Shown: one piece after another, positions 16,278 through 17,908 of the stretch
How the letters are laid out: every line of letters begins with the position of its first letter
How positions within the stretch are numbered: position 1 is the first letter of the stretch
Source of the DNA: Escherichia phage Ptacy1496
Reading direction: 5' to 3' (one strand)
Sequence record: PQ863253.1
DNA length: 64,000 nucleotides
Translations under genes and position numbers: made by a program
The notes under the pieces: generated by a model
The model's database searches: none
Told to the model about the DNA's origin: nothing
What the model saw: the letters and a program-made list of their open reading frames with translations, nothing else

Positions 16278-17057
16278 TTAATTAAAAATATATACTTCAT
16301 CAGTTCCATTCTTTTCTTTGGAATGATATATGTTAAAGACGTATTTTTTATTAAGATGCTTAACATTATATTTTTTAGACCATTCTTTAAGAAGAGTGTT
16401 TTCCTTTCCGTGATGCTCTAAAACATTCGACAGTCCAAATTTTATTCCTCTGTCATTTAAAGAATCTAAAAGATTTAAAAGGTCTTTTTCTTCTTCTTCT
16501 GACCAAAATTTATTATAATCAGCAACTGTTATAAGATATGGAGGATCTACATATACAAAATCGCCGTCTAGAATTTTGACATCTTTAAAATGCAATGAAC
16601 TAAAGATTATTTTATCACAATTTTGCTTAAAGTGATTAAAGCGTTTTTCACTATTTTTGTTTATAGTTCTTTTTCCAAACGGAGTAGTAAAATTTCCTTT
16701 ATCGTTTATACGAATCATATTACTAAACCCGTGAAAATGAAGAACATAAAGTAAAAGAGGATCTCTAGTTTTATTATAATCTTCACGTAATTTCAAAAAC
16801 TCTTCTTTTGATGTTTTTGATAGTTTATATTGCTTTATTACTTTTAATACGTCATCCCATGATACATTAATAAGACGCTTATACATTTCAATAATTGGTT
16901 CTTGAATATCATTGGCCAATACAGGACCATTGACGTTCAAAGACACTGATAAACCTCCACAAAATAAATCCACGAATCTGTCATATTTTGGAAAATGAGG
17001 CTTAAGTTCAGGTAATAATGACTGTTTATTACCTGTATACGCGATAGCTCCTAGCAT
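16278..17057 (-). CDS. dam: DNA adenine methyltransferase Dam
   Basis: 259 aa as in T4 Dam; DPPY motif; FCGG SAM-binding motif. Confidence 0.9.
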
Positions 17058-17617
17058 TATATTCTCTCATTTATTGCAGCAAAAAACGAATTATATAATT
17101 CTTCATCATATGTATTTGATAGTAATACTAACACGTTTTGTGATTTAGCATATTCATTAAACCTTGCTTGGATGGTTGGATTATCAGTAAATGATTCTCT
17201 TTTTGTCCATTTATTACGTGGATAATATCCGCATGGCAAAAAATCTAATATCATCAATGACACAGGGTTTTCAGTTTTTGTGTATTCTTTTAATTTCTCT
17301 TTATCTTCTAAATATATTCCAACCGAATCAATAGCTGTACCTCCACCAACTTGGTGTTTAATTTCAATTATATGCTTTTTACCGTTGCGAGAAATAACAA
17401 TATCAAATCTTCTAGTACGCTTCTTAGTTATAAAATTAGAACAAAACAAATTATTTGATTTTTCAGTATCATCGGTTAAAACCATTTTTTCTTGATAACT
17501 AACTGAACAATCAGTGAAATATTCTTTTACTTTATTAAGTATGAAATTTTCAACTACGGTAGATATTTTATATGAATCTCCGTTTAAAGCCATTTCATGC
17601 ACAATTTTATTAATCAT
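17057..17617 (-). CDS. hypothetical protein with PD-(D/E)xK-like nuclease motif, translationally coupled to dam
   Basis: 186 aa; RFDIVIS...IIEIKHQ resembles D..ExK; stop overlaps dam ATG (TAATG); own early promoter and GAGGA Shine-Dalgarno. Confidence 0.5.
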
Positions 17618-17642
17618 TATATCATCCTCAGCAATTTATTTT

Positions 17643-17672
17643 ATAATACCATAACAAGCTGAGAAAGTAAAC
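17643..17672 (-). promoter_or_regulatory. phage early promoter
   Basis: plus strand ATAATA-18nt-GTAAAC upstream of 186-aa ORF. Confidence 0.65.
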
Positions 17673-17707
17673 AAATTTATGATAAATATTAATTTAAAGG
17701 AGGACAT

Positions 17708-17908
17708 ATGGCACAAAAATTAATGGCACTTGTTAATGCCATAAAAGGTAATAAAAAACGTATAGCTTTTACTATTTCTGCTATGGTAGGAATTTTACTC
17801 TGGAACTTTATTTTATCACCAATTGCAATTGCGCATGGTGTTAATATTCCAGTAGTTACTCTTGATACATTCGTAGATCTAGCATTTGCTTTAGTTGGGT
17901 TAATTTAA
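17708..17908 (+). CDS. small hydrophobic protein (plus strand, convergent with gene 61)
   Basis: 66 aa with two hydrophobic segments; AGGAGG 5 nt upstream of ATG; only credible plus-strand ORF in window. Confidence 0.4.
   Translation: MAQKLMALVNAIKGNKKRIAFTISAMVGILLWNFILSPIAIAHGVNIPVVTLDTFVDLAFALVGLI

Follow-up and report, generated by a model that had tools for sequence, protein, structure and literature searches.

Restriction-modification systems of the DpnII/MboI type, which act at GATC, set a PD-(D/E)xK endonuclease (PF04556) beside a Dam-family methylase of the D12 class. Lytic viruses can hold comparable pairs: chloroviruses encode site-specific endonucleases together with protecting adenine methylases, as with R.CviAI and M.CviAI at GATC. 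The Dam enzyme of the T-even phages T2 and T4 is known from experiment to have the same GATC site as the DpnII/MboI-type systems. T4 dam mutants show little phenotype, and to our knowledge the role of the T2/T4/T6 Dam methylase has never been settled. Here we analyse a stretch of 64,000 nucleotides (nt), the window, from Escherichia phage Ptacy1496 (PQ863253.1), in which the gene directly upstream of dam, an open reading frame (ORF) of 186 amino acids (aa) that we call R, encodes a putative nuclease. We propose, with moderate confidence, that R and dam make up a compact phage-borne Type II restriction-modification-like cassette, a judgement that takes in the activity and target suggested below.

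The region is that of a Tequatrovirus (T2/T4-like), with 2.8 kb that are 99.5% identical to several Escherichia and Shigella phages. The early genes of the minus strand run from primase gene 61 through R and dam to the dCTPase gene 56. An earlier, sequence-only reading of this DNA had described the 186-aa ORF as ending in a TAATG that overlaps the dam start codon, and both its coordinates and the one-base overlap are borne out (Table 1). The window and T2 encode the same Dam protein, from which T4 Dam (98% identity) departs at 6 residues.

The nuclease-like gene R and its pairing with dam

The same reading had seen a plausible D...ExK nuclease core in the string RFDIVIS...IIEIKHQ, which corresponds to R residues 70–89. 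This core is well conserved: eight homologues, with identities as low as 32%, all have Asp72, Glu85 and Lys87, and Glu23, in the first long helix, and a GTAIDS loop are likewise invariant. An AlphaFold2 model of R, made from an 8-sequence alignment (predicted local distance difference test score 81, predicted template-modelling score 0.79), is a single 186-aa domain with an alpha-beta-beta-beta-alpha-beta core (helix 15–33; strands 38–48, 66–77 and 80–88; helix 96–113; strand 119–124). Asp72 lies on core strand 2 of the model and Glu85-x-Lys87 on core strand 3, so that the core topology, the acidic residue on strand 2 and the (D/E)xK on strand 3 by which PD-(D/E)xK proteins are recognized are all present. 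Foldseek matched the model to MunI over its full length with template-modelling scores of 0.57/0.54, and the top structural matches are orthodox Type II enzymes. Structure prediction had been named as the way to compare the 186-aa protein with restriction-endonuclease folds, and a PD-(D/E)xK restriction-endonuclease fold is what it predicts. The model supports R as a putative nuclease of this fold with an intact E...D...ExK constellation.

R is already in the databases, where NCBI and UniRef label it 'hypothetical protein' and where it belongs to PHROG 8706, a family without assigned function; literature searches found no study of the 186-aa ORF. Only the GenBank record of phage Shinka is more specific, naming the R homologue 'putative DpnII restriction endonuclease'. 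In the PDB neither the single protein nor a family profile found a match by sequence, an NCBIfam search with R returned nothing meaningful, and neither sequence nor closest structural similarity places R in the MutH/Sau3AI family. DpnII is its weak but repeated best match: the DpnII Pfam model is matched by four of the eight homologues (best E = 8e-5), and the BanI match of R is weaker still. The PADLOC model REase_II (PDLC03548), from a library without a curated cut-off, is matched by three of the eight members (best E = 5e-6; E = 5e-5 for R of the window). This match too is partial, with R residues 12–109 aligned to positions 145–239 of 290 in the C-terminal half of the model.

By these comparisons R forms a sequence-orphan family, and one that is tiny and phage-restricted. 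An exhaustive HMMER search of 1.84 billion representative proteins found just 12 matches, a second, word-indexed search for relatives with E up to 10 added nothing, and 185,579 bacterial and archaeal species genomes held none. Scans of viral and metagenome sequences gave four further loci only. Where synonymous sites are unsaturated, the ratio of nonsynonymous to synonymous substitution rates (dN/dS) is 0.10–0.24 for R and 0.06–0.10 for Dam. Together with the invariant residues, these ratios argue that R is a gene under selection in which the constellation of a nuclease active site is intact.

The pairing with dam is strikingly constant. R lies directly upstream of a Dam-family (PF02086) methylase gene in seven diverged T4-like lineages, abutting or overlapping it in six. 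These are Tequatrovirus, Dhakavirus MX01 with a relative (R 64/63% identity), three metagenomic lineages (57%, 49% and 39%), Jiaodavirus KPV15 (44%) and a further locus, L005 (39%). All six full-length homologues with examined contigs adjoin a Dam-family gene, the examined contigs with sufficient flanks are T4-like phages, and R without Dam was seen at none of the loci examined. The junctions take the form TAATG, TAAATG or ATGA, or overlaps of 7, 20 or 35 nt; only T2 has a gap, of 13 nt, because its last R codons differ and its product has 181 aa. The R and methylase identities co-vary (64/76, 57/72, 49/64, 44/63, 39/57 and 39/54%), and the pair occupies three genomic sites, namely the gap between genes 61 and 56, a position downstream of rIIA-rIIB in KPV15 and one upstream of an rIIA-like gene in L005. 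An endonuclease-like gene that is adjacent to a methyltransferase gene and co-inherited with it is what defines a Type II arrangement, and R and dam, which move and diverge as a unit, bear this signature of a restriction-modification cassette. The coupling had been called restriction-modification-like from one locus; it holds across seven lineages and three contexts.

R was also said to have its own early promoter and Shine-Dalgarno sequence, and both were located, the promoter as a prediction. Its sequence is a good match to the T4 early-promoter consensus. The GTTTAC-type -35 element, 17–18-nt spacer, TAnnnT -10 element and conserved position expected of such a promoter are all found upstream of R, where the spacer has 17 nt, with (G)TTTAC...TAnnnT at -55 to -58 of R in six of nine loci examined, including that of KPV15 at its other genomic site. 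A generic sigma-70 scan of the region gave 7 sites against 7.9 in shuffles, without excess, and so it is the conserved spacing in these six loci on which the promoter call rests.

Distribution and possible function of the cassette

T2 has both R and dam, and so does the 1988 T2 dam record M22342. T4 has dam and lacks 539 bp of the window's sequence, retaining R codons 159–186 (28 codons); a GAT microhomology at both deletion ends leaves the boundaries uncertain by 3 nt. With tblastn only R residues 159–186 were found in T4, vB_EcoM_F1 and PD112, and the deletion junction is common to all three, which points to a single event; independent recurrent deletions of R are unsupported, given this one junction. 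Miner & Hattman (J Bacteriol 1988) are reported to have described an insertion of 536 bp on the 5' side of dam in T2, compared with T4, for which homology was not detectable. In the T4 record X01416 (613–641) the dam promoter annotated as 'potential promoter P(E) 17.40' straddles the deletion junction (window 17144/17684), its -35 and -10 elements lying on opposite sides. The promoter of T4 dam therefore looks like a product of the deletion itself. Since T4 keeps the last R codons and its promoter spans the junction, its orphan Dam state looks derived, and this solitary Dam may be what survives of a restriction-modification module once carried by the phage.

T6 lacks the entire cassette, its flanks aligning by blastn to window positions 15595–16278 and 17697–18013. 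Mosigvirus JK42 has the same empty site, and Gaprivervirus TH40 is also without the cassette. About 508 records of the phage collection match the surrounding 2.8-kb region, ~325 of them with neither gene. The combined dam and R query is matched by 183 of the 508, of which 148 have dam plus R and ~35 the T4-type deletion; in these records Dam is rarely alone in nature. A need for a more active Dam allele in phages with R was considered and rejected, as the Dam of the R-deleted phage F1 is identical to that of the window and T2.

Under the cassette reading, which we favour, the early promoter would serve the nuclease gene R first and then the translationally coupled Dam methylase. R would be a Mg2+-dependent DNA endonuclease that cuts at or near GATC, N6-methylation by Dam would block cutting, and the phage's own DNA would thereby be protected. 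Cleavage, GATC specificity and methylation sensitivity are proposals, based on T2/T4 Dam being a GATC enzyme and on sequence hints that are solely of DpnII type. The constant need for Dam suggests that, without it, the modified DNA of the phage itself would be sensitive. As the enterobacterial hosts are Dam+, host DNA is an unlikely target of a methylation-sensitive GATC enzyme; more speculatively, the likeliest targets would be unmethylated GATC sites in co-infecting Dam-less relatives or in other foreign DNA. The cassette would then act as a selfish or competitive module, and the solitary Dam of T4 would be what was left after the nuclease half was deleted. On this reading dam is expected to be essential only when R is present. 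An R that works on DNA with hydroxymethylcytosine (hmC) or glucosyl-hmC would be out of the ordinary as an enzyme and might serve as a reagent, and it would show plainly a restriction system at the service of a lytic phage and not turned against one.

Several points weigh against the cassette reading. The match of R to Pfam DpnII stays below the gathering threshold (16.9 bits against 23, E = 0.004) and spans only positions 152–235 of the 278 in the model; with a match so partial, GATC specificity is guessed from the methylase beside R. A methylation-sensitive GATC enzyme would spare the DNA of every known host, these being Dam+, and glucosyl-hmC DNA resists most Type II enzymes (PMC7653180); together these make a natural substrate for R hard to place. 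R precedes the methylase gene in the operon, an order unusual for the safe establishment of restriction-modification. Shortened R products occur in T2 (181 aa), ES19 (183 aa), G29 (142 aa) and Bas37/KarlGJung (61 aa), and because such copies exist and T4 lives without R, the gene is dispensable. GATC depletion, moreover, is independent of carrying dam or R.

That depletion is pronounced. Among all 256 tetranucleotides, GATC is the most depleted in the window, where it occurs 69 times against 203 expected (observed/expected ratio 0.34), and it is again the most depleted in KPV15 (0.14), JK42 (0.13) and TH40. The ratio in T6, for which GATC alone was computed, is 0.33. Escherichia virus TH40 (MT446411.1, Gaprivervirus, 171,726 bp) has 0 GATC against ~596 expected under a second-order model, and its whole genome contains no Dam and no R homologue. 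Depletion by the phage's own nuclease was rejected as an explanation, being equal in the cassette-less T6 and stronger in Dam-less genera. As GATC avoidance does not track the cassette, it permits no inference on the specificity of R.

The fold and catalytic residues of R would also suit an active PD-(D/E)xK nuclease that methylation does not block, which we think unlikely. Such an enzyme could be a MutH-like nickase, discriminating strands and reading the Dam methylation state in phage repair, recombination or replication initiation, or a DpnI-like methyl-directed enzyme that helps to destroy Dam-methylated cytosine DNA while hmC shields the phage. An obligatory link to Dam would be expected for a nuclease that reads methylation too, and Dam+ hosts would offer abundant substrate for methyl- or hemimethyl-directed activity. 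The model of R, however, is one domain of 186 aa, without a winged helix or other methyl-reading domain, and its weak matches fall on the DpnII, BanI and REase_II models, with MutH and DpnI not among them. A sharper version of the competitive role, which strikes us as a long shot, casts the cassette as a weapon of phage against phage, its nuclease adapted to cutting unmethylated GAT(hm)C in the modified DNA of co-infecting T-even relatives. In that case T2, with R and Dam, would be armed and immune, T4, with R deleted and Dam kept, would be immune only, and T6 would be susceptible. The long-missing function of T-even Dam would be self-protection and immunity against relatives, and the weapon could contribute to the extreme purge of GATC in Dam-less T4-like phages such as TH40 (0 sites in 171.7 kb) and JK42 (ratio 0.13).

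Mobility and decay were weighed as well, and we hold both to be very improbable. T-even genomes are rich in mobile nucleases, with segF nearby in T4, and a free-standing homing-type endonuclease of the seg/mob kind, cutting the empty 56/61 junction with dam hitch-hiking, would account for presence and absence at one locus among near-identical phages (the T2, T4 and T6 states) and for a cassette at three genomic sites. Yet a homing nuclease needs no methylase, whereas R is never without Dam and the pair co-diverges; T4 has lost an internal stretch and kept 28 codons, in contrast to a clean empty site, and the closest structural matches are orthodox Type II enzymes. Self-mobile genes leave clean empty alleles of their own, and the empty site of T6 lacks both genes. 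R might instead be inactive or in decay, left over from a restriction-modification cassette of an ancestor, and might at most bind DNA or regulate dam expression. The truncated copies, the deletion in T4, the dispensability of R in laboratory T4 and a dN/dS above that of Dam would all fit decay. Against it, the putative catalytic residues do not vary even between lineages with saturated synonymous sites, the dN/dS of R is well below 1, and full-length R is kept in 148 of the 183 records that match the dam and R query. In two records R is matched by tblastn in two pieces, possibly through frameshifts; the shortened and two-piece copies suggest occasional decay or sequencing errors.

The 66-aa membrane-protein gene and neighbouring features

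On the opposite strand the sequence-only reading had pointed to a 66-aa ORF with a perfect AGGAGG ribosome binding site, converging on the 3' end of gene 61, and both features are present, the two stops overlapping. It had called this ORF the only credible plus-strand gene in 64 kb, in keeping with our finding that it alone has an ATG start among plus-strand ORFs of at least 45 aa in the gaps between minus-strand ORFs; the other four start with TTG. It had also described the product as a two-helix hydrophobic protein. Hydropathy gives a basic N-terminus, one clear hydrophobic helix (residues ~19–41) and a hydrophobic C-terminal segment.

The ORF matches PHROG 2024 over its full length (E = 1.6e-31), and by tblastn it occurs in 692 phage records, in every case convergent with primase. 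Its identity is ~55% in Mosigvirus and 44% in Gaprivervirus, with more distant copies in Dhakavirus and Jiaodavirus, and Trp32, Asn33, Pro38, Gly44 and Pro48 are invariant across five genera. Its place next to primase is kept both in phages without the cassette (T6, Mosigvirus) and in KPV15, which has the cassette at another site, and this makes the ORF independent of the cassette; on this synteny its membership of the module was rejected. By these comparisons it is a real gene in its own right, conserved, encoding a membrane protein and linked to primase. Whether T4 has equivalents of the two ORFs had been left unconfirmed. The answer differs between them: R is absent through the 539-bp deletion, and the 66-aa ORF is intact and carries no annotation in NC_000866, so that a conserved membrane protein of putatively late type is missing from the T4 reference annotation. 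In T6 (L030 1495–1510) its first codon is ATT instead of ATG and the annotated coding sequence starts from Met6; the name given to it in the T6 record, 'putative head morphogenesis protein', was apparently carried over in error.

A box resembling the T4 late promoter precedes this gene. The form nATAAATA occurs at the same ~19-nt distance in five of six diverged lineages examined, as a perfect TATAAATA in MX01 and at locus L010, and the equivalent box at this distance is AATAAATA in JK42 and CATAAATA in TH40. The box suggests that the 66-aa ORF is transcribed late. A terminator-like hairpin downstream of gene 61 falls within codons 6–12 of the ORF, the same bases having two uses; it is retained in T4, and two GenBank records annotate a terminator at this place.

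Two further observations concern the surroundings. In the 61.2 region, at 19102–19458 and 19460–20092 on the minus strand, two adjacent ORFs are paralogues that share 36% identity over a length of 103 aa (E = 4e-11) and both terminate in SIDDQIFNAFMN[RK]G; the T4 equivalent is a single 61.2 gene. Downstream of gene 56, at 15299–15699 on the minus strand, the slot that in T4 contains the homing endonuclease gene segF is taken by two small ORFs, of 69 and 64 aa, a second presence/absence polymorphism near the R-dam cassette.

Table 1. Positions of the R-dam cassette, its signals and the adjoining genes in the window
Feature	Coordinates	Strand	Details
dam, Dam-family (D12 class) N6-adenine DNA methyltransferase, 259 aa	16278-17057	-	Pfam PF02086, E=6.5e-51
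R, 186-aa PD-(D/E)xK restriction-endonuclease-like gene	17057-17617	-	PHROG 8706; = T2 ORF T2_31
R codons 70-89, putative catalytic D72, E85, K87	17351-17410	-	invariance in alignment
TAATG, R stop / dam start	17055-17059	-	one-base overlap at 17057
Shine-Dalgarno GAGGA of R	17625-17629	-	7 nt before ATG
T4 early-type promoter of R-dam operon (predicted)	17643-17672	-	GTTTAC-N17-(TGG)TATTAT
R-dam cassette, 1418 bp, missing from T6	16279-17696		T6 flanks align on either side (blastn)
539 bp missing from T4-type phages (deletion)	17145-17683		R codons 1-158, Shine-Dalgarno and early promoter
Late-promoter-like box GATAAATA	17681-17688	+	7/8 of T4 late box TATAAATA; 19 nt before 66-aa ATG
Shine-Dalgarno AGGAGG of 66-aa ORF	17698-17703	+	4 nt before ATG
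66-aa membrane-protein gene	17708-17908	+	PHROG 2024; RB32ORF030w / RB69ORF029w family
Intrinsic-terminator-like hairpin and T-run	17713-17742; hairpin 17742-17723	-	8-bp stem, then TAATTTTTGT
Gene 61, DNA primase	17905-18933	-	stop overlaps 66-aa ORF stop (TTAA)

Comparison with known systems

The DpnII/MboI-type systems offer the nearest parallel in gene content, and the phage pair departs from them in several ways. R is ~100 residues shorter than DpnII and is without its N-terminal half, the phage order is R and then the methylase gene with the two overlapping, and, in place of a bacterium, the carrier of the pair is an obligately lytic phage whose DNA contains hmC. MunI (PDB 1D02), an EcoRI-like Type IIP enzyme, is the parallel in fold and is similar in size (202 aa against 186 for R). 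The two share only 10–13% sequence identity, without a sequence-level match; MunI recognizes CAATTG and has a different methylase partner. The likeness in fold says nothing on specificity.

Among viral genes, the chlorovirus enzymes degrade unmethylated host DNA, whereas the hosts of R-dam phages are Dam-methylated. The seg and mob genes of T-even phages resemble R as small nuclease genes in early-region intergenic slots that are polymorphic among near-identical phages. Their folds are GIY-YIG and HNH in contrast to the predicted PD-(D/E)xK fold of R, which is always linked to a methylase and whose T4 allele is a deletion remnant. Compared with the orphan Dam of T4, finally, the Dam of the window is the second gene of a two-gene operon. 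T2, T4 and T6 are founding model phages, and the comparison would recast T4 Dam as one half of a restriction-modification-like module.

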